This document shows positions 3,736 to 27,230 of a DNA stretch of 33,332 nt, one piece after another (position 1 is the first letter of the stretch; each line of letters begins with the position of its first letter). The DNA lies in assembly GCA_008636045.1 (NCBI GenBank), contig SNRW01000059.1, forward strand, positions 1 to 33,332, read 5' to 3'. Source of the DNA: Streblomastix strix (Eukaryota). The notes under the pieces are model-generated. The model had not been told where the DNA came from, made no database searches, and worked only from the letters and a program-made list of their open reading frames with translations. Both the position numbers and the translations under genes were made by a program.

Positions 3736-4400
3736 TAAGGAAAAATCCTTCTAATTTAAAACTAATAGCTTTTAATCCAAGATGAAGTGCCAATATTACT
3801 GTTCCAATATTCAATACAACTTTGTCATAACCAAAGAATAATGAAATAAGTTAACAGCTCGTTCATTCATATTCTGAGTATTTATAAATTCGTACCTCTG
3901 ATGCGACTTCTCCAAAGTCACCTAGACTTTCTTAAACTATATTCCAATTTCAGTTTCATAAATCATATCCAAATTAGATTTGTCCTTCTTTTCTTTAGCA
4001 TTAATAAATACAAGTACCAATTACAAAAAAAGATATTGATCCTCCATTAAAGAAAGATCCTCCAGTTTATCCAGAAGTAGAACAATCGCATTATATTAAT
4101 TTTGAAGAACATCCAATTATTATTGTCTGGAACAGTTTTAAGAAAACAAGCATCCCTCCATTTAGATATAAAAACAAGAAGCACTGAATTTTTAATCATA
4201 ACTTTATCTTATTTATATTTATTTAATTATCCTTGTTTCAAATTTTGTTATTTCTTATTTATTAATTATTTATCCTTTCTTTAAATTAACTTACTTAAAA
4301 CTATTTAATTATTTATTAGATCTTTTTTATTTTGTAACTAATAGGAAATAAATTAAATATTTCTTTTAAATAATTTCAATTTTTTCTTCGATTATATATT

Positions 4401-4714
4401 AGTAGTATATAATGGAGATTTATGCCCCAACTTCAAAAAGTATTCAGTTTTATAAAAATTTTCCACTCCAACAATTATTAAATTTTGACCTTAAATCAAT
4501 ACTTAAAAAATGTTTTTTATGGTTTTTTCATAAAATTAATACCTTTGAAGTTAAGACACACTACACCATTATATAAAATAATTAAAATAAATAATTAACG
4601 GGTAAAAAAATATCTCAAATATGTTCTCCCATGAATTTATAACAATATACAATAGCAAATAGTTGATACACATAATTTATATATTAATTTTAGCATGGAG
4701 ATTTAACAAAAATG
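4401..4714 (+). repeat. Left TIR of the Polinton
   Basis: Reverse complement of 25596-25912 with scattered substitutions. Degenerate similarity continues inward to ~4810. Confidence 0.95.
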
Positions 4715-4972
4715 CCGTCTTTAACGAATGAACCAAGTGGATTTGGTGGACCGAGTAAAAAATTGCTATAAAAAAGTGTGGCCAATCGGACAATCTGACC
4801 AAAAATTTGTTCTTGATGAATGGCTTATATAATTAGGATAAAATAATTTAATATTTAATAAATTTAATAATTAATAATAAAATTTATTGATGATAAGGCT
4901 TTGAAAGTCGATAAAATAAAATTATAGGATTTTATAAGAAATTTAAATTTTCATTTTAAAAAACAGTTTAGT

Positions 4973-6729
4973 ATGAACAATTTGTAAGAATTATTTGAGA
5001 ATAAAACTATATCATAATGGTATAAAATTTACTTGGATAATTTCACGAAATATCACGTTGAAAGAATAAAACAAACAACAAAGCCATAAGCAAAGCCAAA
5101 ATAGGAATAATAACCTTAGCGAATGACAAATATATTTCGTAGTAAAATTTAAAATAAAAATGATGTAGTATAAGACATAAAAATAAAGCCATTAAAAATG
5201 CACTAAAGACCATATTTTTTACCAGAGCTTGGAAGCTGGGAAATTGATATAATTTTTGTAATGCACCAAACGATAAATAAAATTGTATAATAATATTTGT
5301 TTTGCATTAATATTAATACCAAATTTTTAGTTGTATTTCCTTTAAAGGATAAAAAAGCAAACGAACTACTAAGATGTATAAAGTAGCTTATCAAAGACTA
5401 AAATGTTAATAGCATACGTTCTGATGGTGAAGCGGCTTTAGGTAGCAAATAAATCGAGGAGTTTTAAAAAGAAAATGATATAAAATATTTTTTTAATTCT
5501 TCATCTTTCATGAATAAAAATCGAGTTGTTGATTCAGTAGTAAGAACAATAAGAAACGCATTTGTAAATGACCCTTAACTAATGGCTAATAACAAATAAA
5601 TATAGCAAGTAGTTGACAAATGTAACAACAGAAAATATAATGCTTTAAAGCTTTAAAAATAATCTTTTAGTCCTTCATAAGTTAATGATAATGAAGATTT
5701 AGAAGGTATATTTATACGTAAGAAAATGGAGTAATTAAAAAATATAAAGGACTTATAAAACAAAAATAAATAACTAGATTTAATAAAAGGGAATATAATA
5801 ATGACACATTTGGTCCTATCAAAAACTTCTCATGGATTTTAAAAGAAAAGAAGGTAATTTAATGAGATAGCAACATTTATAAAATATGAGCATGGCAATG
5901 TTATATGGGTAAGTTTGGTTGGAAATAACATTTTACTATTTTATTTGATTAAATATTTATGTGTGTGTAAATTAAGAAAATGAATGTATTTTTAATTGTC
6001 AATTCTCCTTGTCCAAGGAGAAACAGTATATTTTGAAAACCTCCTATATTGAGTCTGAAAAGATTTTATTTAATATGAATATATTATTATTTAAATTAAA
6101 AGTTCAAATATAAATATTTTAAATAATTGTTTTGTAAAATTTATTTGAAATTGAAATGAAAATAAAATTTTAAATTGGTATTTAATTGAAAATTTTCAAA
6201 ATTGGTTTGTAACTGTAATATGTTTTAATTTTTATTATTGAATGCTTTATTTTGTTATTGTGATCTATTTAAATGTTTTTATGTGAAATAATTATAAAAA
6301 TATCTTAATAAATTTTTTATTTGAAAAATATAAAAAAATTTCAATTTATTGACTTATTTTGTACTACTATAACTAAGTAATTATTTAAAATATTTATATT
6401 TGAACATTTAATTTAAATAATTGTATATACATATTAAATAAAATCTTTTCAGACTCAATATAGGAGTTTTGCAAAATATACTGTTTCTCCGTGGACAAGG
6501 AGAATTGACAATTAAAAATACATTCATTTTCTTAATTTATGCACATATATTAATATTTGAAAATATTATATTGTTTGTCAAAATCCAACCAAACTTACCC
6601 ATATGTGAGTTGTTAAAACCATATAAAGATATAAAAACAGTTGAAGTTCCGGTATATTATACCCATAAAGTTGCTGACAATATTGATGTATTACCTGAAT
6701 AATATAAAAGACCCTTTTAATTATTTTGA
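4973..6729 (+). CDS. Retroviral-like (rve) integrase, ~352 aa after removing the MITE at 5907-6600
   Basis: The frame is open from ATG 4973: WEID (D at 5246), YLFCININTKF, IRSDGE (D at 5423) and NRVVDSVVRTIR (D at 5531, 36 codons later). Removing the insertion and one ATAT gives ...HGNVICELLKPYKDIKTVEVP...F* (TGA 6727-6729). Confidence 0.9.
5907..6600. mobile_element. 694-bp MITE nested in the integrase (GGGTAAGTTTGGTTGGA TIR, ATAT TSD)
   Basis: Perfect 17-bp terminal inverted repeat plus long internal inverted arms (~5960-6130 vs ~6380-6545). ATAT lies at 5903-5906 and 6601-6604. A 4-bp TSD restores the integrase frame; a 2-bp AT TSD would not. Confidence 0.92.
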
Positions 6730-6753
6730 TTTATTTTTTTATTTGTATATTAA

Positions 6754-7065
6754 ATGGAAGATATAAAAATTGTAAAACAAACTTTAAAAGCTGGAAGACC
6801 TAAAAAATATTAAACAAAAGATTAAGCAAAAAATATAGCAAGATAATAACGCAAAGAATATAAAGCTAGAAAAAGCGAGGAGTTAAAAAAGTTTAACCTA
6901 TAAGCTTCTACTCTACAAATATAAGTAATAAAATTATTAGGTAAATTAGTGTTAGATATCGAAGATATAATAAAAATAAACGATATGATACAAAAGAAAA
7001 TAAAATAAGATGAGGTCTTAAAAGCTAGCGTTTTAATGAAAAATGAAGCAACTATTTTATCATGA
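6754..7065 (+). CDS. Small basic protein with AT-hook-like GRPKKY motif (103 aa), likely DNA-binding
   Basis: MEDIKIVKQTLKAGRPKKYQTKDQAKNIARQQRKEYKARK...; intact ATG-to-TGA frame with TAR=Gln. Confidence 0.65.
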
Positions 7066-7069
7066 TTTC

Positions 7070-8163
7070 TTTTTCTTATTTTTAATGTATTTATTCTTTA
7101 GTTATTTTTATGCTTGTAAAGACTTTTATAACTAGCTTGATGGCACATAATTTTTATGTTTTCGTGGCCTATTCATTCTGTCTTCTTTCAGCATTAAATC
7201 CTTCTTTGTTTGTTAATATAATTGGCCCCCTTCATTCATATAATATCCAACTTTTTTTGTGGCATATGGTGTTTTGCTATAATACTGATTTTCTGGGGCA
7301 GTTCCTCAATTTAATCCGTTTGTAAAATATTCTACACCCCTTTGTGTTTGTGCGTTATCTTGTTATAAAATTTATCCTTCAACTTATTTTTCTCTCTAAT
7401 ATTGTTACTACTCATTTATTGGACTTATTTGCTGTTATTAATCTGTAAAATTTTATAGTTAGTATTCAAAAAGCATCTAGTATATTATCAGGACCTTGAT
7501 TATAATAAATATTGTCTTTTTTCTTTACCTTTTCCTTTTCCTTTTCTTAATGAGAGCAAAACAAAAAATTCATCAGTTCATCCTCTTTATTAATGCCTTT
7601 TGGTGGTGCTGTTGCACGTAGTGATGGTTAAGGAAGTCTCTGAATTTCCGTAGCCGAAGGCTTACGACTAACTGGAGTAGGAAATTTATGGATTCCTATA
7701 TCATTTGCCAGTTCATTTGCTCTAGCATTTAAACCTAGAGACTAATCACTCATAGCTTCGTTTCTATAAACACCTTATAATGGATCATGAACATCTCGTA
7801 TATGTTCATCTAAATCCCTATAATATTTTATAATATCGTTAGCGTCAACACCATCAAAATGACTTTACCTTCATGTTGTACTTTTCATACCTTCAAAAGC
7901 TGCATCAACATCTCCACGGGTAATATTAGAGTTATACTATCTTACTTAATCAATTATTTCTTTCCGCTACTTTTACTACCTGCACCTAATTTTTTATCAG
8001 CCTCCGATAGTTTTAATTCATCTAATATTGATGGTATTTTACTTACATTTCGTGGCTAAACTTATTAACCCTTATGTATATATGGCATTTTTGATTCAAT
8101 AAATTCACTAACACGTGTTTTAGGTTTTGCTTTTTTAACTGGTGCAACTCTCTTTGGTGACAT
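7070..8163 (-). pseudogene. Frameshifted basic hypothetical viral protein (possible core/DNA-condensing protein)
   Basis: Starts MSPKRVAPVKKAKPKTRVSEF. Coding-like sequence continues across several frameshifts and TGAs. The 3' boundary is approximate. Confidence 0.45.
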
Positions 8164-8333
8164 TTTATTTTGTTTAAGATTATATATTCTTATTAATATT
8201 TTTAATAACAAACAAATGGCATAACAACACATATTTTGTAAAATAATCATTATAATTTCAAGTTTCTTACTTATTTTTTCATAATTATCAACGATTAAAA
8301 ATAATTTATTTGTTTATTTTATTTTTATTAAAA

Positions 8334-8591
8334 ATGTCTTCGAGCTAATGCGCATAGTTAATGCCTCCACGAAAGTTGTTGAAAATAACCTGTGATGAAT
8401 ATATGATCTTTGCAAAGTTTTTAAATTCATTAGTATCTTTAGCAACAAAAGCACCACCAGAAATAGAATTACGTTTTTTATTACGATAATTCAATATACG
8501 GTTGAAAATGGACTAGTTAAAAGAAATAATAGATGTAGCATATGAAAATAGCCAAAATTCTGTTATGAAGCTATTTGAATATTTGATTTGA
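8334..8591 (+). CDS. Hypothetical viral protein (85 aa)
   Basis: MSSSQCAQLMPPRKLLKITCDEYMIFAKFLNSL...FEYLI*; intact frame with upstream TTATTAAAAATG context. Confidence 0.6.
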
Positions 8592-8611
8592 CATTATTTT
8601 TTGATAATAAA

Positions 8612-10081
8612 ATGAGTGAAGTAGGTTTGCAAATTATAAACTCTGACTCTGATAAGGATTTTGTACAGTGGGACACAACAATACCAAGTGGTTGCTAAAG
8701 CTTTCAAGTTAATAGCATAAATAATATACCAATTAATTTAACATATTATTTAAATGGTGATTATATCGAAATATAGCATAACATTGTGTCTTTGGATATG
8801 ATGAAAATATACTAACAAATAAATATATCAAATGATAATTTTAAGCTATAACTTATTGACAAAATACCTCCAATATGATTAAACATGAATACAGCAATTG
8901 ATAACTGTTTTACAAGCGACTAAACGGTATAAGGATATAAGTATATGCCTACAGTATTAGCCCATCCATTAGCCAATATATCAAGCTTTGTTGATACAAT
9001 GTAGAAGCATTTTAATACATAAATAACGTTGAATAGTGGAGCAATATGCTTTAATAATGGAATGAATTAGCACATATAGAAACTATAAATAGTGTTTACT
9101 AGTTAAATACAAATTATGTGTAAGATATTGTTAGTTCTGCAATTAATTACATAAATTTAAGGATTTTAGCATTTTTTTTATCACTACTGGATACTAGACA
9201 CAACCGCTAATGTAGCACATCGAGCTATTGGGTTAATTCGATTATATTGTCCTACAACAAATAATTATATATCATCTATAGAGCCAAAACAATTTGGAGC
9301 ATAAAATAATTTAGCAGTTAGATATTTATTTGGTAAGTAAGTAGATATTAACCCGAATGGAACATTTACGTCATCAGATGTATAACCCATTAATGTGTAG
9401 CAACAAACAATGCAGTAAATTATTAATAATATTAATACGTTTCCTGTAAGATTAATTTGTTCCTTATCAGCACCATGTATAACTTAATTGTAAGTAATTT
9501 ATAATTTATTTGGCAGAATAAGTTTTTATGGCTAGTTTATCCCAGAGATTATAAGCGATTACGTCAAGACATTACACACTTACTGGTTCGCTAATAGAAT
9601 AATTTTATCGCCTAATTTGTACGTATAACTAGCTGGTACGTAAGACTTATATGATGGACTTAGTGAAAATGGGGCTAATCAAGTAATAAATTTATCATCT
9701 GCAATTAAACAAATAGACCTAGATATATAGTTTTACTAAACAAAATTTGATAATTAAAGCATAGAAACTGATTTACTAATTTTTTGCCCAAATATTGGTA
9801 ATTTTCTTGAATATCCACAAATGTTAATAATTAGTGTATTAAACTAGATATAAGGCATTACTTTGCAGTCTATTGGTGGCAATGGGTTTCCAAACGTATA
9901 CTTTAAATAAAACTTGGAAGATGCTCCGGTATTATGGGGGAAAAACATGATGTTTTAATAGTGTTTGATAGATTAAAATAAGTCCCTTTTATTCACTTTA
10001 TATGACAATTTTGGCAGGAAAATACCTATGCAGTTTATGGAAATATACAATAATTTACTAATAGAGATACAGTATCAATGA
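8612..10081 (+). pseudogene. Probable minor capsid (penton) protein, ~490 codons, with an in-frame TGA at 8876
   Basis: Beta-strand-rich ORF. The C-terminal LLFTLYDNFGRKIPMQF...LLIEIQYQ* resembles penton C-termini. The assignment rests on motif impression and context. Confidence 0.5.
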
Positions 10082-10599
10082 TTTTAATTTTAAATAAATG
10101 GATAAAAAAAGTAAAGTTTTGACGATATTTGAATTATCAATACTACATTATAGCACAGCATTATAGGACATAAAAAGGTTTGAAAAACAACTTTAAAACG
10201 CATCAAATTATACTAAATAATGTGAAAGAATAATAGGAGTTAATTTGCATACTATTATTTATACGATTGATGAAGTGGTGAATAATGCAAAAAACAGATA
10301 AAGCACTATACAAAAATGATGGAAAACAATTTGGAAACAATAAACATTTTATATATTGCGTATCCATAATTATAGCAGGAGTTTGATAATTTTATTGATG
10401 AGCATTAAATAACCTTTTGAGTCATATTTTTTTTCTCTTTCCAAAACTATTTTTACACATTTTAATTTTAAATATCTGGCCCCACTCCGTAAATAATAAT
10501 TTATATAATTAATAAAAATTTATTAGCCTAATTTCGATGAAAACCTAAAGATTCCACAATTAAGATAAAAATTGTGAGGTTATTTAACTTTTCAACATT

Positions 10600-13500
10600 A
10601 TGTTTAAAGAAAAAATAATTATAATAAAATCAGCTAATATACTTAAGATCATGTAGCCCGTAGAAACGCATATGAATAAAGACTATAAAAAGCTAGATTA
10701 TAACGTTATTAAATTAAAAGAACAAATGATAGAAACGAATAGTATGACTAAAATTTATAAGAATATAGAAGAGAATAAGAACAATAAGAAGCAGATGTAT
10801 TTTGGACTGATTACCAAAGATAATAAGCCGAAGAAGCAAAACGAATAATGAATAAAGAACATGATTTGATGTTATTATAAGAGTCAAAGAAATTTACAAA
10901 ACCAAATAATTTTAAAGAAATATAAGAGCATTTTATATTTCCATTATATTTTACAAGCTAATAATAAATCAAAGAAATATATAATAAAATATAAAAATAT
11001 GAATGATATTAAATTAATTAAATTAAAAATGAGACAGAAACATTGCTATTATTTCCACCAATTGATAACGAAAAATTTGATTAATAGGTTAGACGTACAA
11101 GACAAGGGTTTTAACGTGAAAAGGAACTCATGTCTGACGATGGCATAAGTCCAATATAATATGAAAATTACATAGATTCTTGGGATAAAATAGAAGAATT
11201 TGTCGATATAATTTATAACAAATAAGACCATAGAGTATTTAAAATACTGTTTAATTTTAGTATTATAGTGGAAGAATTAGACCATGATAAAAATGGTAAT
11301 GAAGTTGTTAATTATAAATATTTATTGCCACGAGAAGCAAGAACATAAGCACATGCACCAAAGAATATATAAACACAAGAAGATATAGAAGAATATAAAC
11401 AATATATAAAGGCTGAGATTATTGACATGTAAAATTATAATCTGGACAGTACAAAAGAACGTCATATAGCAATTTATTCGATGATGATTAAAATATTTAA
11501 ATTGTAAAAGGTAGTGGTTGGGTCAAGTATGAAGGAATTGATTCAAAAACACTGGTTTGAATTCAAGAAAGTTTTATATAAAAATGATGGAGAAAATAAT
11601 ATGTGTTGTTATGGAAGTATTAGCCGGAGCATTAAATCATGATAAACGCAAGGCCGACGGAGGCGCAGATAATAAACGAATTAAATCAAATTCGATTATA
11701 AGCATTAGCCGTTATTATCTTGTTAAGGTATTAGACCTACGCTTCGATGCAAAAAGTAGATAAATGACTGAATTTTTAAAAACATTTGAAGGTTTAGACT
11801 TTACGAAATACTCCTAAATTATAACACAAAAGTTTATGATTAATTGGAATATATACTTTTATGATGATGAGCACAAAGTTTATCATTTGAGTGATATAAT
11901 TAAATACATTGAAGAGGAACAGGACCAAGAAGAAACGAGTGAACAATAAAATTATATCCCAACCGTTGAATTACTAATCGTTCAGGAAGAAATTGACGGA
12001 AAATTAGCTCAACACGCATTTGCTATAGCTAACAAAGAAGCACTTACTAGGTTAAAATTTTGTCCATATTGCAAGTCAAAAGGGTTTGATACTAAAAGCC
12101 CACACTTCCTAGGAGACTATGAAAAACATACTAAATAGTGTGAATAAAATTGTGGTAAAATAGTTAAAAATATTTAATTTGATTAGATATAAAAACCGTT
12201 TTGCCCATATATCACATAAAACAAAACCTACTAATATCTTTTGGCATTTGGAAGATAAAAAGAATTTATACCGACATAATACTATATAACATATGACTTG
12301 GAAACAGTGGAAAATATTGTTAATTAATAATTTGGAAAGTCAAGCAAATAGATATCCGAATTAGTGCTTTTATCTGTTGCTTCTACTATTAAAAATAAAC
12401 ATGGTATTCACACAATATATTCTGACTTTCGAATTGGAAATGATTTTATAACGCAATGGTTAAAGCAGGTGTTCAATGAGGCAGTCATCATATAACAAGA
12501 TAATCATTATTACACACCCGTAGGAACCATATACAAAAAAATGCAATATAATGTGAAGATATCAGTAATTGGATTCAATAGTTCAAAGTTTGATTTTTCG
12601 CTAATATTCAGGAATTTATAAAGAGCTGACTGGAAAATAAAGAGTAATATTGCCAGTTCAAGAATAGCCAAGCAAATAGTTGCTTAACATAAGCACTTGA
12701 ACGTTAAACTTAAATTTATTGATGTATTGACTTATTACGTACCAATTTCTTTAAAAGAATTTGCATAAACTTTTAATTCTGAAATTAATGGATAAAAAGG
12801 CGTATTTCCTTATGAATTTATAAACATTGATAACTACAAAGAAATTTTAAACTAGTCATAATCATTTCCAATAGAATCATTCAACTCTATGCTGAAAAAT
12901 ACATCAATGAAATAAAAAGAATATAATTAATATGTGTAAGATGCAAAGCTATTCAAAAACAGATGGGAATATCTTTAATATTATAATGAATAAGACAAAA
13001 AATATTGATAGAACCAATTGATGCTTTGATTCAAATGTATATGAAGTTTTACATCGATATGTTTAGTTTTATGTCAATGGTTGCATGTGCAAATGCAACT
13101 AAATATGCACTAGCTTATAAAGAGTTTAACATTAATGGTTATTATCCTAACTATATTGATAATTCGCCTAAATTTGTTTTATAATAAAGATATTGGAATA
13201 GTAAAGCATATTATTATAAAATGTAGGATTCGCAACAAAAAAGAGATACCACCAATAATGTTAAAGAGTCAGATTTCGACTATTTCAAACAACTATTTCA
13301 AAACAATAAATGTGTGATTTGTGGCGACGAATTCACATTAAATAATAAGCCAACGCTCGATAGAATTGATAATAAAAAGGGTCATTCAAAGGATAATATT
13401 TAACCGTGTGGTTTGTATTGTAATACCTTTTGTTCGAATAAAGACAAAAACATCCAAAAACTATTCATATAATTAAGGAGATTTTGCAGCTTCAACCACT

Positions 13501-15107
13501 TACCAACTAATTTAACAGACATTGATATTTATAAACTAATCAGGTAATGCATAACTGGTGGCTTGTCTAACGTGATGCATAGGGTTAATATTGCAGGGAA
13601 AGACTATATAAAGAAATTTTGGTATAATAAATAAGCTTTCAGAGAAAGCGCCACATTTAATCCTTATGACTAATCAGGCGGGATGCTTCGCACCCCTGTT
13701 ACGGTTTTAACATCTGACCATAGAATAACACATATAATAGGTATAGATTTCAACTCTTTATATCCCAGTGTTATGTCATCAGAACCTCGCAAATTCATTA
13801 AATAAACCGGTGGCAAAATGTATATGCCTGGGTCTGTTGTTAGTAAAATATTGAATAATTCCGAAGAAAATAAGCAAAAAATAATTAATATAATAAATAA
13901 CTAAAATAGATATAATAAATGGGGACAATTATTTATAGCAGAAATTAAGGGACACATCGATGAGAATTATTTGAATGATTTTATTAATTTCCCACCAATT
14001 TTAAGAAATTATGAGTTTATTACTAATGAAGAAACAATTGGTAAATACATGTACGAACATATGAAAGATAGTGGAACAAAAAATGATTAAAAATAGCGGA
14101 AATTAACAAATTTGTTATCAACAATGGACGGTTATATGTCATTTTCAAGTTATTATTTATGGTTTTTGATTGATGACTGCCATTTTATAATTGATGATGT
14201 TAAACAGTTGGTTTTGTTTGATAAACATGACAAGTTCAATGGATTTGTGAAAGAATTTACAAGCCAACGAATTTAGGCAAAAATTGAAGGGTAAAAAGGA
14301 TTAGAACAATTTTGTAAAATCAATATGAATAGCTCTTATGGAAGTGATGGTATGAATACTGAGAAATATACAAAGATAAAAATAATGAGTTAAAAACAAG
14401 CATTACAAGCCCATTTATCGAATACTTTTATGGATGATTAGAAACTTGGCGATGATGTTTATGCTGTATAAATGAATCCAGAGACATGCGCATGTAAAAC
14501 TTCTTTATAAGTTGCTTATTTTGTATTAGACAGCGCAAAGTACTGGTACCTAAATTTCATTTACAATTTCATGTATAAGTGTTTTGATATGAATAAGCTG
14601 CATTTTGTAGAAGGAGATACTGATTCAGCATATTGAACGGTCAGTGGTGATGAGAATGCCTGAATTAAATAATAGTTTAAACAAGTTATAAAAAATCAAT
14701 AGTTTTATGATGAAAAAGCCAAGTATTTTTTCCCGACGGTTGAAGGTGATTTGTTGGACGAGAAAAAGATACTTGGGTTAGCTATCGAAAGAGAAGGAAC
14801 AGAAATGATAGCATTAGCTCCAAAAAACTATTTTATAAAAATTGGTGATAAAGAAAATATAAAATTAAAAGGTGTTAATCAAAATATTAATAAAATTACT
14901 AAAGAATAAATAATGGATAATATAACCAGTGGAAAAATAACTAAATGTACGAATATGCGGTTAGGATAAAAGAATTACCAAATGAGTAAATTAGCTACAG
15001 AGAAAAATGGTATAACAGGAATTCATACAAAAATGGTGGTACTAAGTGATTAATCATGTAGTCCTTATGTATTTGGTTTGAAAGCAAGTGATTATAAGGT
15101 CTAATGA
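10600..15107 (+). pseudogene. polB: Protein-primed family B DNA polymerase with N-terminal terminal-protein/OTU-like region and HNH-like insertion; disrupted
   Basis: ExoI YDLET (12292), ExoII GFNSSKFD (12571), KGVFPYEF, ExoIII YLQYYNEQD, motif A DFNSLYPS (13746), motif B KINMNSSYG (14316), motif C GDTDS (14613), ALAPKNY and KLKGV. Frameshifts near 11605 and 13000; TGA at 14634 and 14661. The start is approximate. Confidence 0.93.
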
Positions 15108-15505
15108 AAAAATAAAAATCAAACCGGTTATTTTTATGGATAGTTTAAAAGTTTAAAGTATAAAATATATCTGCAATGAGTCGCTAATTCCAAGTCTTTA
15201 CTAATAATGGCATCATTCAAAAATTTTTCGATTTATCCAACGTTTAGCTATGACCAATGCAATTTAGGCTGTTGTTTATCCATTTTTCTTTTATAAAAAA
15301 AAAATATAACATAAACCGTTATATTTAGTGGTACCAACACTATATCAAAATAGCCCCATAATTTTTTAATTAAATTAACGATTTCGGTCAGCTGCTCAGG
15401 AATAGATACAGACAAAACAGATATAATAAAATTAACGCTATAAAATATGTAATTCATTAGACTCATAAACAAATTCAATAAGTTCATTTTATTATTTTTA
15501 AAAAC

Positions 15506-16522
15506 ATGACACTGCAAGAGATATAAAACATAACATTTTCAAACTAGGATTTACTAAACGAATATAAAACACGACCATTAACCAAAAACTCCATATTCCT
15601 TGTTAATGGAAACCATTATATTGTTGGGGCTGTTGGTAGTGGTAAAACAACATTAATGTCTAAGCTAATAGTAATATACTAAAAAGTAATCAATCCATTC
15701 ATATTATACTTTTCAAATTTTGGTGCTGACGAGACAATGGCATTAAATCTTAACAGTAAAAATATATTATTAACCAATATAACATATGGGGAAACATAGT
15801 TGTTTTTACCAGAATTTGATGAAATAAAATATTCAACAAAAGAGGTATATACTTGGTATAAATTGCATGAGTAAGGTTTCACATATACCAGTGACTTTAT
15901 TAAAAGAGTCGAAGAAAAAATAATATAATAAAATGAAGCTAAAAACAATGAAAAACCTAATGATTATCTTAATCGAATTGCTGAACTATTCAAATAAAAA
16001 GTAATCGAGACCATTAATACACATAGCTAGCCATTCAAAATATTACGTTTTGATATTCCAGCACTTATATAAAACATTAGCTATGAAAAGAAAATGAAAG
16101 TAATTGATGATAAACAAACAGTCGATATAAAAATAATGAAAATACCAGTACTTTTTAAAGCATAATTGTTAAATACACTAATGCTTTTTGATGATATTGG
16201 AAGTAATGCCGATATCTAACGTTTTAATTCTTCACTTGCTAAATCAATTACTCATTTGGTTAGTGATTCAAGACATTCAAAAAATACCATATTTTTCATA
16301 GCATAAAGACCAAGTTATTTGTTTAAAACTGCAAGGATATTATCCCATGTAATAACAGTAGTGGTTAATCTTGGAGAGAGTGATTTAAAACAAGTTGATG
16401 AAGATAAAACAATATAAAACCTTGATCTTGAAGAGTTTTTACTGTTATATTCCACATTATAAAAATATGAATTTATTATTTTAAACAAGCTTTTCAGCAA
16501 GTATGAAATATTGCGAAATTGA
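15506..16522 (+). CDS. A32/FtsK-HerA-like genome packaging ATPase (338 aa)
   Basis: Walker A GAVGSGKT (15626-15649), Walker B LMLFDD (~16181), then SRH...FFIAQ(TAA)RPSYLFKTAR. ATG and TGA are in the same frame. Confidence 0.9.
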
Positions 16523-16542
16523 TTATTTTGTATGTAAATAAA

Positions 16543-16791
16543 ATGGAATAATTGTATTAACTAGCCACAAACATTGGCCTATAATATAATGCTACGGACT
16601 ATGAAATTTTCAAAATATTTGAAGCATTAATTGAAAATGATGATATGAATGAACAAGAAAAATAAATATATCAATAGTTTAAAAGTCATTACAGTTTTTT
16701 AGAGTCTTTGCAGAATAAAACGGTGTAAATAATAGAATATATTTAATACCTCAATTTATTGATGCGGTTAAATTCATCTGATAATAATTGA
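16543..16791 (+). CDS. Hypothetical viral protein (82 aa)
   Basis: MEQLYQLATNIGLQYNATDYEIFKIFEALIENDD...; intact frame with TAAAATG start context. Confidence 0.55.
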
Positions 16792-16823
16792 CCAAACCAC
16801 TATTTTATATATCATTAACAAAT

Positions 16824-17204
16824 TCATTATACATTTTTTTCCTGCTCATTTGCTTCAGATATAATGTATTTTTTTATTTGCTATGGCTAATTGTTTTAAT
16901 CCAGTTGTTTTTTAATACAATTATACTTATTTTTATAATATTTTTCTTACTCGTTGAACAGTTTATTTTTATAATCTTCTTCATCAACATACCGCTTTAT
17001 CTGCTATAATTTATTTTACTAATTCATAAACAACTTACTTATTCTTGTTAGTTCTTAGAGTAATGGGTGTAGTATTATTTCTTTATCTTTTACTAACAAT
17101 TTTTATAGTGCATCAATTGTTGCTTTTATCGAATCATCACTTTCAAAATTTTACTTAATTACTTTATTAAACAATTATTTTATAGGGTTTTTGCATGAGG
17201 TCAT
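16824..17204 (-). CDS. Hypothetical viral protein (126 aa, helical/coiled-coil)
   Basis: MTSCKNPIKQLFNKVIKQNFESDDSIKATIDALQKLL...; intact frame. Confidence 0.55.
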
Positions 17205-17272
17205 TTATTTAAAAAAAAAATTATTGCATTACATGAACAAAATAGGATTTAGAAGTCCAAAAGAGAAAAACA

Positions 17273-19578
17273 TCATTAATTTTAGTAGTTCGGATCAAAT
17301 TATAATGTGTGGTCTCTCCAGAATACAGTAGTTCCATCACTATAAAATCCACCATCTGTTCCAAGACTTTTTATATTCCATACTATCGGATTGACTTATG
17401 AATAATTAACTGAACCGCCAGCAATAACATACTCTTTGAAAGTTAAAATATTTCCATCAGCGGAAATTAATAATCCTCTATCAGTCCATCCTTCATATCC
17501 TGCTTTACGATGACAAAACCAAGAGGATTTGCACCATTATTTCCAGTTGATCCTACCAGCCATTAGTTATCAATCTTACCAGAATTTGAATTTGGATCAC
17601 TACCTAATTATATATTACTCCATTAATTTATTTGGTTCTTACTTATTCGTATCCCTTCGTTAAATGTTCCATTAGTTGTTGGATTAACTTATATTAATTT
17701 ACCGTATGTTTTTATTCCAGTTATCGTTTAATCAGTTGGTATATCAACGAATCCATTACCATTAAATGCTAATGTTTATCCATCAGCACTAATTTGCAAA
17801 CCTCTGGTATTATCACCAGCTTATGAGGCCAACGCTATAACAAAACTTTAAGGGTTAGAAATTGCGGTATTTGGTGGTGTAAATATTGACCATTATCCTA
17901 CAATAGCATCAGTGTTATATGTTCTACTACTTCCTAACTAAATCGATGAATTACCTGAATTTTCACCAGATCTGGCTATTCTCAAACCATCATCATAACT
18001 AGTTGCTGTAGAATTTATTTATATACTATCATTTTATGTGAATTGAGCTTTATTTATAGTAAAATAGTTAGATTATAAATTAGGAAATAACTTTTATGAA
18101 CTTGTGAAATCAGTTGGCGTTTAATCAACAGGTTCCGATGTTAATATATCAGAAATACATTCGGGTTGATTGAATAGTTCAATTGTTTATGTTATCTATC
18201 CTTCATGGCAATATTTTAATAATCGAACCTATAAATCAGCTGTTTTATTTACTCCTTCAACGTAGAATAATGCAGTTGGTTTATTAACTCTTTCATTAAT
18301 GAAAATACACGGTTTATAGTTATAAATGAAACCCTCCATATCTTCATTATAGTTTAAATTTGCTTATGTTTTTCCAAATCTCTATCTACATTACATATCA
18401 AATTCAATAAATGTATATTAAAATATGGCGCTTGCGTTAAAATGACATAATTTAATATATTTATCTGTATCAGTTTAATTTGATATATTTTTTACTTTAA
18501 CACCATTAATATATTTAGTGTCACCATTAGCGCAAAGTACTTCCGTAGCCAATCTTCTAGTCTTAATAAATTTTGTAGCTGTAATGTTTCCATCATATAT
18601 TAATTACTATGGATGGACGTGGTCATTTCTACTATAAATATCACTCGTACCATTAGCCGCAGCAGTGGTATTTAATTACAGAACATAAGCAGTAGTTGGA
18701 TCAACATTTAATGGATGTTAATGTGTTGCACTAGCATATATATTAGCCGTGCATGCTGTTCCTGTTCCCGTATCTTTTAGAGGTACGTCATTACTTAGAT
18801 TTACATGATGTGTATGATAAGACCTGGAATAAGTGGTAGCAACTCCTGCCTCACCATTTGCAATATCTTTTGTAGGTAAAACAGTTGAAATTTATAAAGG
18901 ATGTTAATGGTCTCCCCTCTCATATTCATTACTAGTTCTTGCACTACCATTTGCCACACAATTTGAAGGTGTTGCATCACTTGCTGGGGTTACCTAATCA
19001 GGTACTATATCACCACTGTTATACCAACTTTATTCAGAAAGCCCACCTTGTGTACTTATTTCATACATCCATACGGTTCCACTTTCTGCACTAAAGACAA
19101 AATCATCACTAGCCGAATTAGATAAGTTTTATATAACACTATTCAACAAATAATAGCCTCAAAAAAACATCTATCTCGCTAGATCTTACTAAGTAGTTTA
19201 TATTTCACTTTTTAATCCATCAATATCTTACTTTACCCCTCCTATTGGCGACTATAGTTAATTTACTTCATTAATTAACTGGTTAATTTATGCAACCAAA
19301 TCAATGTTTATTACCTTTAAATTCTTTATTGTCAGCAGTCCATTTGGTGCTATTTTTAGTGCATAATCAGTTGCATAACCATCAACTATTTAATTATTAG
19401 CTGCATATACAAGTGCATTGTCATTATCTATAAACAGTTAACATTCATCATTTTGCAACATTTCACCGCTAAAGCTTCCCATTTTTTAATACTGTATATA
19501 ATATGCTATATCATTGGTGATAAGCTAACGAACTGTTCGGATTTGCTGCTGTATTAATGGATTATTTTAGGTAATCAT
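17273..19578 (-). pseudogene. Large phage tail-fibre-like protein (~765 codons), disrupted
   Basis: An N-terminal coiled coil precedes four HxH repeats (YERGDHQHP, YSRSYHTHH, YASATHQHP, YSRNDHVHP). These are followed by TATKFIK...LCANGD, two G(L/I)RI...GLxISADG modules and DQTITGIKT. There is a TGA at 19159-19161 and frameshifts near 17440 and 17510. Confidence 0.75.
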
Positions 19579-19614
19579 TTTAATAAAAATAAAATAAGGA
19601 ATGCGAAATATTAA

Positions 19615-19830
19615 TCATGCAACATCGGAGCTTCTTTACAAGTCGATCCACAGCTACTGCAAGGTTAGCCCAGCACCTAGTGCTCCACCAATTCCTGGGT
19701 GTATCATTCCTATAGTGCCTGATATTGTTGATAGTACCTTATGAAGAGTTGGTGCTACCCACTACGCAGCATGTTTAATACCTCCCAAAATTTTACTTCC
19801 GATGTTTGCTATACCACTGAAAAATCCCAT
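19615..19830 (-). CDS. Small Gly-rich amphipathic-helix protein, candidate membrane-penetration (adenovirus protein VI-like) peptide
   Basis: MGFFSGIANIGSKILGGIKHAAQWVAPTLHKVLSTISGTIGMIHPGIGGALGAG...; head-to-head with the putative MCP. Confidence 0.65.
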
Positions 19831-19854
19831 TTATTTATTTTTAAAAATATTAAA

Positions 19855-21842
19855 ATGTCATTCTCAGCATCTGACTACCTTTAATGACTATCCAAAATGC
19901 CACACTCCGATTACGTTAGTGGATACATACAACTTGGTTAGGTGTTAAAAACATTATCAATTCATGCCTAATCCTTCGCAATTTCTAAGCAATAATTTTT
20001 TGATTAGCCAGTAAATTAGCTTACATCATCAGGTGTTAGATATACACGTACGCCATTGGCTGCTAGAGGAACAGCAACTTGTTCAATGGAATAAACCTGC
20101 TAAGTAAATTGGACTATAACAATCCCCACAAATATATTAGCCGTATAATTAAATAGGTGTGAAGTTGCAGGAGCTACTGACGACAACTTAAGAGCAAGGG
20201 TTAATTTTAATGTGGATGATGACATCACAGCAGCCCCCGAGAATATGACATAAAACAGACAAAAAAATTATGGTAAAACTGCTGATGATGAAGAAAAAAG
20301 CGAACATCTGAAGTTTTGGTTTGGTTTCTCCACTGCTTGCGGACCCTTTAATTAGGTTGCAATATTACGAGATGCTTAAAATTTATGGAATACAACAATA
20401 TATGCAAGAGAGTAAGCAGTTATTTGTTCAAATTCATTGACAGATTTATGCATTAATAATAGCATCAACGTTTCACCACTTGAGAGTATCATTGCTGGAA
20501 AACGTCATTGTGGTATTTTTATGGGTATACCGCTTAGTGATATAGATTTATAAGCTACGGAAGCAGAAGATTAACCAAGAACACCATATTATTTTAGAAT
20601 ACCATATGATATAACTTTTAGTGATGTATTAGATTTGAACTAATTAAACCCAATTTTAACTCATTCCCCGTACTTAAAAGAAACTATGCATTATTATACT
20701 TATAGCTATGGGTGTAGGATTTCCTTTAGGATTTAAAAATTGTGTGGCTTAACAAGTCAGATACTATTAAAAACCGTCACTTGGCATATGCAATGATTCC
20801 ACCAGAGAAATCAGACATTGTTTATTTATTAAGTGAAAATGGTGCGGCTCCACTATCATATGAATATTATGCTGTTAGGCTAGTTAATATGTAAAATGTT
20901 GCGAATAATGCAATAGTACCATAAAATTCCATTAGTCAAATATCAGATGCTAAATTCGAAAAGCTAGAAATATAAAATGTATGTCTTAATATAGAAAATG
21001 AAGAAGCAATTATTCAGATGATAAAAGCATTGAGAATAATAAATTTCCTTACATAAGTTATAAGGTCTTAATCTTCAAATTTTCCCTTCAGTGGATTTTA
21101 TGCTGTTTCTGGTAGTATGTAAAGTATAATGTCATTTGCTAAAATAAAGGCACTATTCATGACATTTGCCATGCCACAATATCCTACTTGGTTTTTCCCT
21201 GTACTATTTTATAACTTTAATTTGGTTGTTGATTAAAAGAATTAAATACCATAACCATATAAAGCACTGACCCAAACAACTAATAGCTAAATATTTGATT
21301 GTTTTGTCGATTAAGATGTTGTAAGTGCTCCATCAGACCTATACCATTCACTTACTTTTGAAAATGTAAATGCTGATGATAAAAACAGTTTTTATGGATA
21401 TATTGACCCTGGAGGAAATGTAGGAGCTAATGCTAATATATTTTATAGTACATCATTATACAAAGGAAGTAAAGCCACAATAACATTATACCGAAATAAG
21501 TATATGCTGGCATGGAAAATGGCAACTGATGACACTTTTATGCATGGCTATAACTCTTCAAAAATTGGTGCAAGGACAAATATATAGTTGATTTTAAACG
21601 GAAATTTGACTAAAGGAATTATAGATACGACACAACTAATTCCTTCATAGAATTAGAATGATTTTAAGCAATTTATTGCTAAGCAAAGCTATCCAGATCC
21701 TCATTCGGTTGCACAAACGCCTATAATGCATTATTTGTGTGATGCATTTATTCGCATAACTTTTGATGATAACCCAGATCCATAAGTATTAAGCATGGAT
21801 GTTATTGGAGAGATAGGAGGTTCATCAATTAGGAGCGGTTGA
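19855..21842 (+). pseudogene. Probable double jelly-roll major capsid protein (~660 codons), disrupted
   Basis: Long beta-rich ORF including LKFWFGFSTACGPFNQVAI, LDLNQLNPI, IKALFMTFAMPQYPTWF, MLAWKMATDD and IMHYLCDAFIRITFD...SIRSG*. TGA at 19885 and a frameshift near 20660. MCP identity is inferred from size and context. Confidence 0.65.
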
Positions 21843-21912
21843 AAAAAAGTCTGCCTCTATGATTAATGAATAAAAATAATTATTTTTTCATTATTTTTGT
21901 TTATTATTCCTA

Positions 21913-22053
21913 TCAACCATATATTTAATTTCTAACCTCTTCGCTAATTTCTTCGCAATCCATTTTTATTAATGCTATCACTAATATACAACCAAGCAAA
22001 TTATTACAAGCTATAACTATTATTGATATACTAGTTATTATTTCCCAAATCAT
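21913..22053 (-). CDS. Small single-pass membrane protein (46 aa)
   Basis: MIWEIITSISIIVIACNNLLGCILVIALIKMDCEEISEEVRNQIYG*; hydrophobic N-terminal stretch. Confidence 0.5.
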
Positions 22054-22111
22054 TTATAAAAAATAAAATTAAATTTTTCACCTGCAAATTTTCGATTCAA
22101 CGGTTTCACCG

Positions 22112-22267
22112 TCAAATCTTCGATTCGCAAGCAAATTTAATTGCTGCTTCCCAAAAAGCCTTAAAGATATCATGCCAATTTATATTTAATTATTCAAGGG
22201 AATATATTATAGACTACGTGCTAATGCTTTCATTAAATCCGTTGCTTGCTTGACCGAAGGAAATCAT
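22112..22267 (-). CDS. Small hypothetical protein (51 aa)
   Basis: MISFGQASNGFNESISTQSIIYSLEQLNINWHDIFKAFWEAAIKFACESKI*; the stop falls at a hairpin/duplication junction. Confidence 0.45.
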
Positions 22268-22286
22268 TTATTTATTTTTAAAATTA

Positions 22287-23195
22287 TCAAGCTGATTAAT
22301 TAAAAACAGCGTATGATTCGCAAACCTATACACAAAAATCATCTGGTAAATTAAGCTAACACATTGTATTTATAATAGCATTTCCATTAGGATTAATGAA
22401 GTAATCAATAGGAATAGCACCATTCCAACATATAGGATAACCAATAACTTTTTACGCAAACATAACAGCATTTAAAGGTATATTATAAGGTGTTCCTGTG
22501 AATTTTGGCTTTATGACATTATTAACGATTGAAAACATAGTATAATCTGATTCTGTTAATGTATTTGGATCTGAATGAGTTATTTACAGAGATATATATA
22601 TACGTTCTTTTTATGATTTAATTGTTCCCCAAATTAAATACTCATACATTCCATAAGCAATAGACTAATATATTGCATATTCGATAGGGACGGGAGGAAG
22701 AGGTGATACAATTTAATTGTTAAATTTTAATGTCGTACAATCAAATTCAATAATTATACCCTTATAATCATATGCTTAATCTTCTTATTTTTATATCCTA
22801 AATTTTGATGAAGTTGATCCAACTTTCCATACACCATCAATATCCGATGGGTCAGCATTACAGCCCGTGAGTACGAAACTATCCCAATTATTTTTATTTT
22901 TCATTATCCGTATGCCTTAGTCTAAAATTGTATTACTCGGTTCAATAATTAATTACCCCATTGCATGAGGATAATATTTAGGCAAAAAATCCCCTATGTC
23001 TGTTGTATCACCATTAGTGAGTAAAATTTCGTTGGTTGTACCTTTGTTTTTAACGAATTTTTAAGCAAGAATAGGCTATAAAAACGTCTTTACTCCATTA
23101 ATTACTTGACTTGTATGTAAATTTACATAATAAATTGAATTCCTGAAAAAATGACTCAAATAATTAAAGTATTTAATAATTTCGTTATCTATCAT
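22287..23195 (-). CDS. Second fibre-like protein (302 aa) with a distinct C-terminal putative receptor-binding domain
   Basis: MIDNEIIKYF...QVINGVKTF...AQKFVKNKGTTNEILLTNGDT...DQGIRIMKNK...GIIIEFDCTTLKFN shares modules with 17273-19578. The frame is intact. Confidence 0.7.
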
Positions 23196-23332
23196 TTATA
23201 TAGGAGTATTTTTTACTTTGTCTAATTTTGCTATTCTTCCTGTATTTTCTATAACCTTTTTTATTCTTCCTACAAGTTTTTTAAATCATCGTCATCAATC
23301 AATGATAATTCGCTAATTGGTTAATCGTTCAT
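23192..23332 (-). CDS. Small coiled-coil ORF (46 aa), coupled by an ATGA overlap to the fibre-like gene
   Basis: MNDQPISELSLIDDDDLKNLQEEQKRLQKIQEEQQN...; its stop overlaps ATG 23195. Confidence 0.45.
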
Positions 23333-23356
23333 TTTATTATCCAAAAATAAATCACA

Positions 23357-23773
23357 TCATTCATTAACATAGTAATCAATACAATTAACTAGTTCTTTAA
23401 CACTACATTAGCCATATTTATTATATTTAATTTAAAATTACATTTATTCTACAGCATCTTTTGATTCACGGTATTTTATCCCAAAGTCCCTGTTATCACA
23501 TAAGACTTTCATTTGTTCGGTATATTCTTTAGTTATATCCTCGATATGCTCATTGTTTCGCTTCTCAATTATTATATAAACTATTTATAGATATTTATCA
23601 GGTTATTTTCCATATCGTTTTAACAACTTATAATATGGCTTATTATTTTTACTTAATGTTCTTTAATAATAATCATCATCACACTAATAAATAGGTTCCA
23701 CGTATATTTCTTTTGGAATATTTTAAGAATGTACCAACAATTTACCTCTTAAAACAATTTCTAGCAAGTTCAT
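23357..23773 (-). CDS. Hypothetical viral protein (138 aa)
   Basis: MNLLEIVLRGKLLVHSQNIPKEIYVEPIY...IDYYVNE*; intact frame. Confidence 0.6.
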
Positions 23774-23823
23774 TTTTATAGATAATAAAAATAATAAAAA
23801 AATAAATATGGATAAAATAATTA

Positions 23824-24519
23824 TCAAAAATCATTATCTGTAATTTCTACCTCTGGTGCTTCGCTTAAACGAATAAAGTCGCAATTTACTCGATATAGTT
23901 TTTCAATAGAGTTATATAGCACATTATCCAACACTTTTACAGATGCATTTTTTAGTAAAATATCTTATACTCTACTAAGGTCCTTTTTCTTGAATTTTTT
24001 AGGTATGCAAGTATGTGGTTATATATAATTGCTTCCTCAAGTACTATTTCAACGTCATTTTCATCATTCTATGTGATTAGTGCCCAAAATTTTATAAAAT
24101 TTTCAGAAGAAAAAACAAAATCATCACCTCGTTATCTTTGAGTAATGGTGCGCCAAATAACGTCAATTACAAACTTTTATACTATGAGATTAGGATGTGA
24201 TAAGTTTATACTTTTGGCTATTCTTCTGCTAACTATTGAATTGTCTCTTCCGGTTCTACTTATGCCTTTGTTCTATCTACTTCTTTATATTTAATTATAT
24301 TATATTTTTTATGCAGTATGTTTTCATTTTAATTTTCAATAGGTTTTTAGTGTGTTGTTTCTTAGTCAGTTGGCAGTATTTTTTTATACGATTAATTGCA
24401 TCATCAATTAGTTAGAGTCTAAGTTTATCCTCATCTGCCAACTCTTTTTTCTTAATATCAGCCATTTATTTCTTACTCCTCGACATTCTTACTTGGTTTC
24501 TTTCTATACCCTTTATCAT
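23824..24519 (-). pseudogene. Frameshifted hypothetical viral protein
   Basis: MIKGIERNQVRMSRSKKQMADIKKKELADEDK... and C-terminal ...VNCDFIRLSEAPEVEITDNDF* are separated by frameshifts. Confidence 0.45.
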
Positions 24520-24543
24520 TTTATTAATTTTTAAAATATTAAG

Positions 24544-25209
24544 ATGGAATTATCACATGTGTTTAAAAATTTGATAGAAAACTGGACAAACATAGAATAT
24601 TTTGATAAGGGCTATTTTGTATAGATTAACAAACAAATAGAGGTATATGATAATGGCAAAAAGCAACTACGAAAATTGTCACAAACATAATAAAATAAGC
24701 TATTGCTTTAAGCTCGAGGAGGGGGTGAAATAAAGAAAAAACCATTAAAATAATCTGTATAAAAATAAGCTGTGGATAAAGAAGTAGATTTTATAAATTA
24801 TGAATAATAGGAAGAAAGACATAGAGATATACAGTAAGATATGAACGAAAGCGATGATGAAATAATTAGTTAAAGCGAAAGGCCGGAAAGGCCAATAAAA
24901 CATTAACGTGAGGTTAAACAATCACATAAAAGAGTTATAAAAGCATCAAAATAGCCATAAATCAACTATACTAATCCATATCTTGATTTGGAAGAATTAA
25001 TACGTTTAAGAACTGAAAATACTTTTATAAAGCAATAACATTAAGACGCTATATAATAAATAGAGAAATACAAGCAAAAAGTTAAACGTTATAAGCAACC
25101 AAAATAAGCTATTGAAAAACAAGAGGAATAACAAGAGATTCCACAAGAGCCTATAGAATAAAATTATTAACAAGAATAAAAATTTAGCGAGTATGACTTA
25201 TATAATTGA
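24544..25209 (+). CDS. Q/E/K-rich coiled-coil hypothetical viral protein (221 aa)
   Basis: MELSHVFKNLIENWTNIEYFDKGYF...LDLEELIRLRTENTFIKQQHQ...YDLYN*; intact 666-nt frame. Confidence 0.65.
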
Positions 25210-25595
25210 TAATAATTATTTTTAACTAATTATAAAAATGGAAGAATTTTATAGTCTTTTATAAGGTTAAGAACCAAAAATTACAACAATAGCTTTAACA
25301 AATAAGTAAAGAAATATAAGACTTTAACATAGAGCTAAAAAAATCATAAATTTCAACTTTACTTTTTGCACTTAGCAATATACATGATATAATGAAAACA
25401 TTAGAGCCTTATTACGGTAGTTAAAAATATAATATAATCTTATGAGAAAAATATATTTGGCAGATTGGCACTCTGGCAGCATTTTTTTATGACAATTTTT
25501 TACTTTTTTGTTAAAAAATGTCGTAATACTCGATGCATCCGATGCACTTTTTTGTTAAAGAACGTCTAAAGACATGGTGATATCCGTGGCTATGT

Positions 25596-25912
25596 CATTT
25601 TTTGTTAAATCTCCATGCTAAAATTAATATATAAATTATGTGTATCAACTATTTGCTATTGTATATTGTTATAAATTCATGGGGGAACATATTTGAGATA
25701 TTTTTTTTAACCGTTAATTATTTATTTTAATTATTTTACATAAGGGTGTAGTGTGTCTTAACTTCAAGCGTTTTAATTTTATGAAAAAACCATAAAAAAC
25801 ATTTTTTAATTATTCATTTTAAGGTCAAAACTTAAAAATTGTTGGAGTGGAAAATTTTTATAAAACTGAATACTTTTTGAAGTTGGGGCATAAATCTCCA
25901 TTATATACTACT
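25596..25912 (-). repeat. Right TIR of the Polinton
   Basis: Reverse complement of 4401-4714. Ends TATACTACT and is followed by the TSD TATATT. Confidence 0.95.
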
Positions 25913-25960
25913 TATATTGCACATCATTTGTATCTATGATGTTTGATATATTATTTTTTT

Positions 25961-26400
25961 AGGTATGTCATATGAGCCAACCCCCCCCCCCCTGGCTCGG
26001 CCAGCCAGGACAAATGCTCTGAGCCATGACCTTGGCTCTATATAAATTTTATCAGATAAATAATTCAAATAAAAATCTAAAAATGTTTGTAGTAATCAGA
26101 TGTTTTGAATATAATATTAAAATAGTATATATAATAATATAACAATATACTATAATATTTTCTTGAAATACGCTCTAAAATTCAGTAAAAATCTTTTTGA
26201 AAGCGCCTATGGGGATTGGGCCAAAGTTGGCCGAGCCAAATCGGGTATTGTTACTCCCACCCGTAAACACACCTCCACCCGGCTGGGTGAGTTTAATTTT
26301 TTTTTCTTACGCTCACCCAGCCGGTGAGCGTAAGAATTTCAACCTTAAATCCACCCATTGGGTGAGTATAAGATTTTACCTTATACTCACCCAGGTTAAA
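25961..26400. repeat. GC-rich palindrome cluster (probable transposon terminal/subterminal region)
   Basis: TGGCTCGGCCA (25993) pairs with TGGCCGAGCCA (26228). Perfect stems: 26279-26291/26312-26324, 26304-26317/26323-26336 and 26359-26372/26380-26393. Confidence 0.7.
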
Positions 26401-26829
26401 AAATAGAACATATTTAGTATATACCTTATATAATATGTTACATTCCACTGGACATGTGTACAAGCATATTCAAATGATTATATATGATATGTTCTGTATA
26501 TATTCTATTCATTAACATAACATTAATGCATAATGGTCACCGTGTGTCGCTTTTTTAGAACTCTGCGTTTTGTTCACCATGCCAGTTAAATTATTAACAT
26601 TTATAATTAGTATTTATTATTATACATATTATAACATACACCCAATAAATTATTTACTATTTTTATTGATCGGATTAGTTAATTCAATTGAAAAAGTAAA
26701 AACATTCTTTTCTTGCTATTAACTACTTATACTATGATTATTAAAATAAAAATCTATTTTATATTAATATTTGCAAATAATTTTTAATAAAATATCATTT
26801 TAATAATTTATTTTTCAAAATTTATTTAG

Positions 26830-27180: not shown

Positions 27181-27230
27181 ACAACATTAATACAATATTT
27201 TATTGTTTTATTAATAAATAACTAAATTAC

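Follow-up and report, generated by a model that had tools for sequence, protein, structure and literature searches.

Polintons, or Mavericks, are defined by the joint presence of a family B DNA polymerase that is primed by protein (pPolB) and an RVE integrase (PMC5499653), and inserts of the homing-endonuclease type have been noted in polinton pPolBs (10.1101/2024.03.18.585575), both as given in the consulted portions of these sources. The closest described systems are the endogenous viral elements (EVEs) of Streblomastix strix, for which the consulted part of Bellas et al. 2023 (PMC10120064) reports 820 major capsid protein (MCP) hits, all within a single cluster that belongs to the Metamonada (MMN) group, a representative MCP of 562 amino acids (aa), and the use of TAA and TAG (TAR) as glutamine codons, with a long association suggested. 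MMN membership there denotes a link to the cluster seeded from T. vaginalis, at 25% identity over 30% or at BLASTP E < 1e-4. Beyond that paper, our literature search on Streblomastix and the termite gut returned only a Yaravirus preprint without relevance. Here, we analyzed a 33,332-nucleotide stretch of S. strix DNA (contig SNRW01000059.1, assembly GCA_008636045.1; hereafter the window), in which positions 4401-25912 very probably hold a full-length but broken integrated virus of the Polinton/Maverick type that uses TAA and TAG as Gln codons, one of many divergent S. strix copies.

The element, ~21.5 kb long, begins with AGTAGTATAT at 4401 and ends with ATATACTACT at 25912, between two identical copies of TATATT, a hexamer found at 0.2% of flank positions. 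Its terminal inverted repeats (TIRs) aligned over 312 bp with 301/312 identical bases, two insertions or deletions (indels) and a perfect outermost 76 bp. AG ends and a 6-bp target-site duplication (TSD) are characteristic of Polintons/Mavericks, and both were found here together with the TIRs, which confirmed the AGTAGT termini, TIRs and perfect 6-bp TSD proposed in an initial annotation of this DNA. The description of the element as complete, made in the same annotation, held for the boundaries (ends, TIRs and TSD) but not for the genes, because most core genes are broken. No paper pairing "Mavericks" with "AGTAGT" was found in the literature, and no tRNA genes were found. The defining features of the element are as follows.

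4395..4400, plus strand: left TSD, TATATT, by direct reading
4401..4712, plus strand: left TIR, AGTAGT start, 301/312 identity with the right TIR
4712..6732, plus strand: RVE-type integrase with a D-D-D triad (Pfam rve, E 1e-4), probable start at 4712
5907..6600, no strand assigned: foldback of 694 bp resembling a miniature inverted-repeat transposable element (MITE), with GGG...CCC ends, ~225-bp TIRs and a 4-bp ATAT duplication
10485..15107, plus strand: pPolB with an endonuclease VII (EndoVII)/HNH insert, start approximate
15506..16522, plus strand: packaging-type P-loop ATPase, 338 aa, intact frame (GAVGSGKT; LMLFDD; IAQRP)
19855..21842, plus strand: predicted double jelly-roll MCP, about 660 aa, from S. 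strix siblings and the fold of a sibling
25599..25912, plus strand: right TIR, ACTACT end, from the TIR alignment
25913..25918, plus strand: right TSD, TATATT, by direct reading

The polymerase and the integrase were both present, each in a broken gene. The pPolB, for which 100 homologs were collected, matched DNA_pol_B_2 of Pfam (E 2e-7) and the phrog_1907 polymerase (E 8e-11); its insert matched the endonuclease VII of phrog_1035 (E 4e-13), and an HNH-like motif occurred in 93 of the 100 homologs. Frameshifts near 11630 and 13000 and TGAs at 10575, 11004, 14634 and 14661 interrupt the frame. The match of the integrase to Pfam rve lies under the Pfam gathering cut-off; the protein also matched 17 open reading frames (ORFs) across 80 related loci, and the third acidic residue was D in all six homologs shown. 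TGAs stand at 4796, 4814 and 4817 of this gene, and its 3′ end is split by the MITE-like element, after which the frame resumes at 6601 and yields a tail motif, EVPxY/FYT, that matches the homologs. The TIRs of the inserted foldback are identical at 199 of 219 aligned bases, and its terminal 17-mer is present twice, with 0 occurrences expected; we take its GGG...CCC ends and 4-bp TSD to recall Sola-type transposons. The packaging ATPase carries Walker A and B motifs, matched generic P-loop families only in Pfam, and weakly matched the ATPases of related elements (phmmer E about 1e-7, within 13 candidate ORFs); it is presumably of the A32 type.

All of these genes depend on the alternative code. 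Under translation table 1 no ATG-initiated ORF of at least 80 aa lies within the element, the five found in the window all being in its right flank, whereas under table 6 the element is densely coding with long ORFs. This comparison upheld the proposal that the integrase, pPolB and ATPase are open only with TAA/TAG as Gln, and the conserved ATPase glutamine predicted to be TAA at 16304 was indeed in frame within IAQRP. When the 87 pPolB homologs from outside S. strix were used as subjects with TAR positions masked, the TAR codons of the C-terminal pPolB frame aligned with Gln in 21.5% of cases, 8-fold above background. TAR accounts for 247/332 Gln codons in the element and for 51/81 in a flanking dynein gene, likewise readable with TAR = Gln; the difference (74% versus 63%, p 0.05) is indicative only, since the dynein reference is a likely pseudogene. 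Because a TAR share of 247/332 exceeds what ~2% of decay after insertion would yield, the lineage probably used this code already while active. This share, and the position of the pPolB in a deep clade composed of S. strix sequences, supported the long residence in the alternative code suggested earlier. Mean Gln content was 5.9% in the 13 S. strix pPolBs and 3.1% in the 87 other homologs, an enrichment that, as judged from the protein sequences, accompanies the code change.

A TGA at 19885 and a shift of frame near 20650 interrupt the MCP gene, whose product is 74-87% identical to S. strix siblings. A first homolog search, which covered proteins of 612-2000 aa, gave 25 matches, all named S. 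strix and seven of them labeled "Major capsid protein" in UniRef; no Pfam or PDB sequence match was obtained for the family. Sibling frames are full-length (616-669 aa at 52-87% identity). With an alignment of 22 close siblings only, the predicted fold reached a mean predicted local distance difference test (pLDDT) score of 39. Addition of distant relatives, the best 150 of 215 matches from a library-wide hidden Markov model (HMM) search, raised the model of sibling P0002 (74-84% identical to the window MCP) to pLDDT 77 and a predicted template modeling score (pTM) of 0.84. Foldseek reached E 1e-11 with this model, and its top matches were the capsids of PBCV-1, Sputnik, an iridovirus and mavirus, and Atlas features placed the family at 0.95-0.97 to capsid clusters. 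Ten hand-picked distant relatives shared 21-28% identity with P0002, and three of the ten lie on 20-22-kb contigs. Taken together, the modeling identifies the 19855-21842 family as double jelly-roll capsids; the fold check named beforehand for the suspected jelly-roll capsid was passed by the sibling P0002.

Four further genes may contribute to a virion.

8612..10081, plus strand: candidate minor capsid (penton), about 489 aa, suggested by the adjacency of a homolog locus
17273..19578, minus strand: long ORF, likely fibre/receptor-binding (coiled coil, DHxHP-type repeats)
19615..19830, minus strand: small ORF with an MGFFSG start and an amphipathic N-terminal helix (hydrophobic moment 0.4-0.5)
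22287..23195, minus strand: second fibre-like ORF, putative label, no Pfam/PHROG match

All 11 homologs of the candidate minor capsid are named S. strix, and one has a locus tag adjoining that of an MCP sibling. A TGA at 8876 breaks its frame, which is also shifted locally around 9060-9180. The Atlas score of its homolog P0284 was at most 0.76, no PDB match was found, and hhalign gave no match to the penton-like ORFs of two related contigs (L024 and L021, described below). The long ORF, broken by a TGA at 19161 and a frameshift near 17500, we take to be fibre- or receptor-binding from its motifs; neither fibre-like ORF matched Pfam or PHROG, and no PDB match was found for fibre-like ORFs. The product of 19615-19830 is predicted to be a membrane-active virion protein, presumably comparable to adenovirus pVI.

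The present copy is likely dead. TGAs or frameshifts occur in the integrase, pPolB, MCP, candidate minor capsid and one fibre-like gene, and the TIR divergence corresponds to about 1.8% change per site since insertion, from which about four TGAs would be expected, against six observed in the 4274 codons counted. These TGAs would be sense codons if the host read TGA as Trp. Such a code could explain the nine internal TGAs in 1597 codons of the flanking dynein, which has no frameshift there and, over the displayed portion of the alignment, carries one TGA at a Trp (two more at Trp positions, we presume), and one pPolB TGA also falls on a Trp column. Yet Trp columns in the element hold 14 TGG and one TGA, the remaining TGAs stand opposite Arg, Cys, Phe, Gly, Lys or Ser, the MCP terminates at TGA exactly at its siblings' end, and the frameshifts would be left unexplained; we therefore reject TGA = Trp as having next to no chance of being correct. 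An intact and active copy whose stops and frameshifts were assembly artefacts of collapsed similar copies is also very unlikely, though slightly less so. Many EVE stops disappear on polishing, according to the consulted part of Bellas et al. 2023 (PMC10120064), and siblings are abundant here: in sequencing run X1, 3489 contigs align to 19860-26400, only 391 of them at ≥99% likeness, siblings also occur in X3, a run from a second study, and an indel sets apart about half of the depth at 20653. The foldback duplications in the window could likewise be amplification artefacts. Artefacts would not account for TIRs that differ at 11 sites with a TGA count fitting that divergence, nor for an integrase split by a nested MITE with its own TSD; moreover, X1 contigs with zero differences match the present copy at about 120-fold depth and keep the window's version across 24211, where siblings have an indel. 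All four runs listed are termite-gut metagenomes; together with the S. strix names of 25/25 MCP, 11/11 penton-candidate and 13/100 pPolB homologs and with a flanking dynein that also reads under TAR = Gln, this makes the oxymonad S. strix the likely host.

A harder alternative holds that the element spread only as a self-synthesizing transposon, its capsid module being a relic. No protease was detected, the penton candidate is unconfirmed, and four scans of IMG/VR gave no confirmed relative, all as this account would have it. Capsid frames of siblings are nonetheless full-length at their wide range of divergence, and distant members of the MCP family lie on 20-22-kb contigs, so that we regard spread without capsids as improbable while giving it clearly more weight than the two preceding alternatives. 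We accordingly retain the full-length, broken virus as the preferred interpretation, and several observations count against it. The minor capsid is an unconfirmed candidate proposed by inference from sequence, leaving the virion module not fully shown. Pfam on 27 ORFs, a motif scan and a two-sequence HMM all failed to reveal a Ulp1-type maturation protease; these tests are weak because Pfam also missed the protease-like ORF of L024. The MCP structure was modeled on P0002 and not on the broken gene of the window. The decay estimate presumes that the TIRs were identical at insertion, and the comparison with read contigs was confined to 19860-26400, with the left half of the element outside. X1 is possibly the source sample and hence not independent support for the breaks. 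Finally, no empty insertion site was seen among the 15 of 56 joints displayed, which cover 19860-26400 and one flank only.

Matches to the pPolB comprised 13 sequences named S. strix and 87 others, two of which bear prokaryote labels and are likely misbinned. Trees were built after four of the 100 homologs were dropped (coverage <60%), and 40 of 97 rows were used in two trees and in the approximately unbiased (AU) test. The window pPolB fell in a clade of six rows, every one S. strix (SH-aLRT 99), that has long internal branches and lies nested among metagenomic polymerases. The S. strix pPolBs split into two separate clades in three trees; two separate invasions of S. strix are not claimed, as the AU test does not reject a single clade (p 0.48, LG+G4 quick tree).

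The standard code is indicated for the 80 related loci, where TAA terminates 60 of 102 long ORFs. One of these loci, L007, contains at 8972-23276 a complete standard-code element of 14,305 bp that has AGTAGT termini and TIRs of 191 bp and is flanked by a CATATG duplication; it carries a pPolB, an MCP-like ORF of ~540 aa, an ATPase and a DDD integrase amid eukaryote-like genes. Under default filters, profiles A2, A3 and A4 gave no match at E 0.01 among the ORFs from these 80 loci; A2 without filters weakly matched the L007-type MCPs (E 0.002). The contigs L024 and L021 (~21-23 kb) belong to the same pPolB clade and bear MCP-like ORFs of a third type (650-657 aa, not matching the present MCP), penton-like and protease-like ORFs, and no match to the present integrase; these gene sets suggest module exchange. 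A metagenome scan with P0225 yielded no confirmed relative.

The present ~650-aa MCP family shares 15% identity with the ~540-aa L007-type MCPs (hhalign E 5e-4). This distance, the family's own distant relatives and the missing Pfam and PDB matches make a second capsid family plausible. On balance we favor, with some reserve, the view that the ~650-aa capsids mark a second, uncounted S. strix Polinton-like family with a DDD integrase and no separate protease, formed by exchange of the capsid module around a common clade of gut-protist polymerases and by now confined to TAR = Gln hosts. Against it stand the nearest Atlas clusters of the MCP family, which are those of Preaxostyla and Parabasalia, and the Major capsid protein labels that UniRef already gives to 7/25 matches. 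The element uses TAR = Gln as the published S. strix MMN EVEs do, and its possible link to the MMN cluster was gauged by proxy, through the 15% identity to L007-type MCPs. In the part of the Bellas et al. 2023 supplement that was searched, four of six sibling locus-tag numbers were unmatched and two matched unrelated accessions only.

The remaining genes comprise about ten further unassigned ORFs, some of which have S. strix sibling proteins.

6754..7065, plus strand: basic ORF, 103 aa, no Pfam match
7068..8163, minus strand: basic ORF broken by frameshifts; P0290, a protein of S. strix, aligns to it in two frames
10099..10319, plus strand: short ORF, by ORF call
15119..15487, minus strand: hydrophobic ORF, 122 aa, by ORF call
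16543..16791, plus strand: ORF, 82 aa, by ORF call
16824..17276, minus strand: ORF, up to 150 aa, by ORF call
21890..22267, minus strand: ORF, likely broken, by ORF call
23357..23773, minus strand: ORF, 138 aa, by ORF call
23800..24519, minus strand: ORF or ORFs, broken, by ORF call
24544..25209, plus strand: Gln/Glu/Lys-rich ORF, 221 aa, by ORF call

Head-to-head gene pairs occur at 15485-15508, 19828-19857 and 24517-24546 (also 22265), with a 16-24-bp AT spacer between CAT and ATG. The spacers have a palindromic core, TTTTAAAA, and are likely bidirectional promoters with very short 5′ leaders.

The right flank contains an axonemal dynein heavy chain (DNAH6-like) on the minus strand at 27260-32600, whose nine TGAs align with W, R, C and F columns; it is likely a pseudogene, with no frameshift in the stretch that holds these TGAs. 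A 345-bp inverted repeat (94%) at 26404-26748 and 32988-33332 encloses the dynein fragments, and a dynein-like piece lies on the plus strand at 26878-27246, an arrangement that could reflect either an inverted duplication or a chimera. In the left flank, 1047-1902 forms an 856-bp near-palindromic foldback, 89% self-complementary, with weak similarity to the interior of the MITE; it could be another foldback element or have arisen as an artefact of amplification.

A history can be proposed whose mechanistic steps are modeled on established Polinton biology (consulted portions of PMC5718144 and 10.1101/2024.03.18.585575). In an active ancestor, insertion of the AG-ended TIRs into host DNA by the DDD-type RVE integrase, at a stagger of 6 bp, would have produced the TATATT duplication; the linear genome, once excised, would have been replicated by pPolB through protein priming at the TIR ends and packaged by the ATPase into a fibre-bearing double jelly-roll capsid. 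The lineage probably came from standard-code relatives and then would have had to end its genes in TGA; later drift to TAR for about three quarters of Gln codons would now confine it to TAR = Gln hosts. Insertion would have been followed by neutral decay of this copy (about 1.8% per site) and uptake of the MITE into the integrase.

The notion that the element was invisible to annotation and novel did not survive, since sibling proteins are present in NCBI and UniRef (7/25 labeled Major capsid protein) and the code use is described in the consulted part of Bellas et al. 2023 (PMC10120064). The wider claim, that a TAR = Gln host contains an endogenous virus of the Polinton/Maverick type, is supported by the ends, TIRs, TSD, pPolB, integrase, ATPase and MCP fold. 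With Polinton-like viruses in S. strix code already in print, the present element adds an end-to-end example with TIRs, TSD and a gene map. Should its capsid family prove distinct from the published cluster, counts of viral load and diversity in the S. strix genome are too low, and a capsid lineage has been missed by Pfam and PDB sequence searches. Because recoded and standard-code relatives share one polymerase clade, the speed at which a virus takes up its host's code, and whether it is trapped thereby, can be tested.

Compared with canonical Polintons/Mavericks, as described in the consulted portions of 10.1101/2024.03.18.585575 and PMC5718144, the element shares the pPolB with an endonuclease insert, the RVE integrase, the ATPase, a double jelly-roll MCP, TIRs and a length of about 20 kb. 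It differs in having no Ulp1-type protease detected by the weak tests above, D in place of E as the third catalytic residue, an MCP with no Pfam/PDB sequence match, and a non-standard code. Because no such protease was found by these tests, we provisionally do not file it under canonical Polintoviricetes (animal Group I/II). In structure, the Sputnik, mavirus and PBCV-1 capsids come closest to the MCP model (E 3e-11 to 5e-9), and at 7-10% identity and a template modeling (TM) score of 0.35-0.40 by query the link is one of fold only. The standard-code L007 element and its near-copies are alike in AGTAGT ends, 6-bp TSD, TIRs, pPolB (39% identity) and DDD integrase (28-31% identity), and differ in length (14.3 kb), code, the ~540-aa MCP type and gene order. 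The S. strix MMN EVEs share with the present element probably the host, as well as the double jelly-roll MCP, TAR = Gln and high copy number, as far as the consulted part of Bellas et al. 2023 (PMC10120064) describes them; their 562-aa representative differs from the present ~650-aa family and resembles by eye the ~540-aa MCPs of the L007 type.

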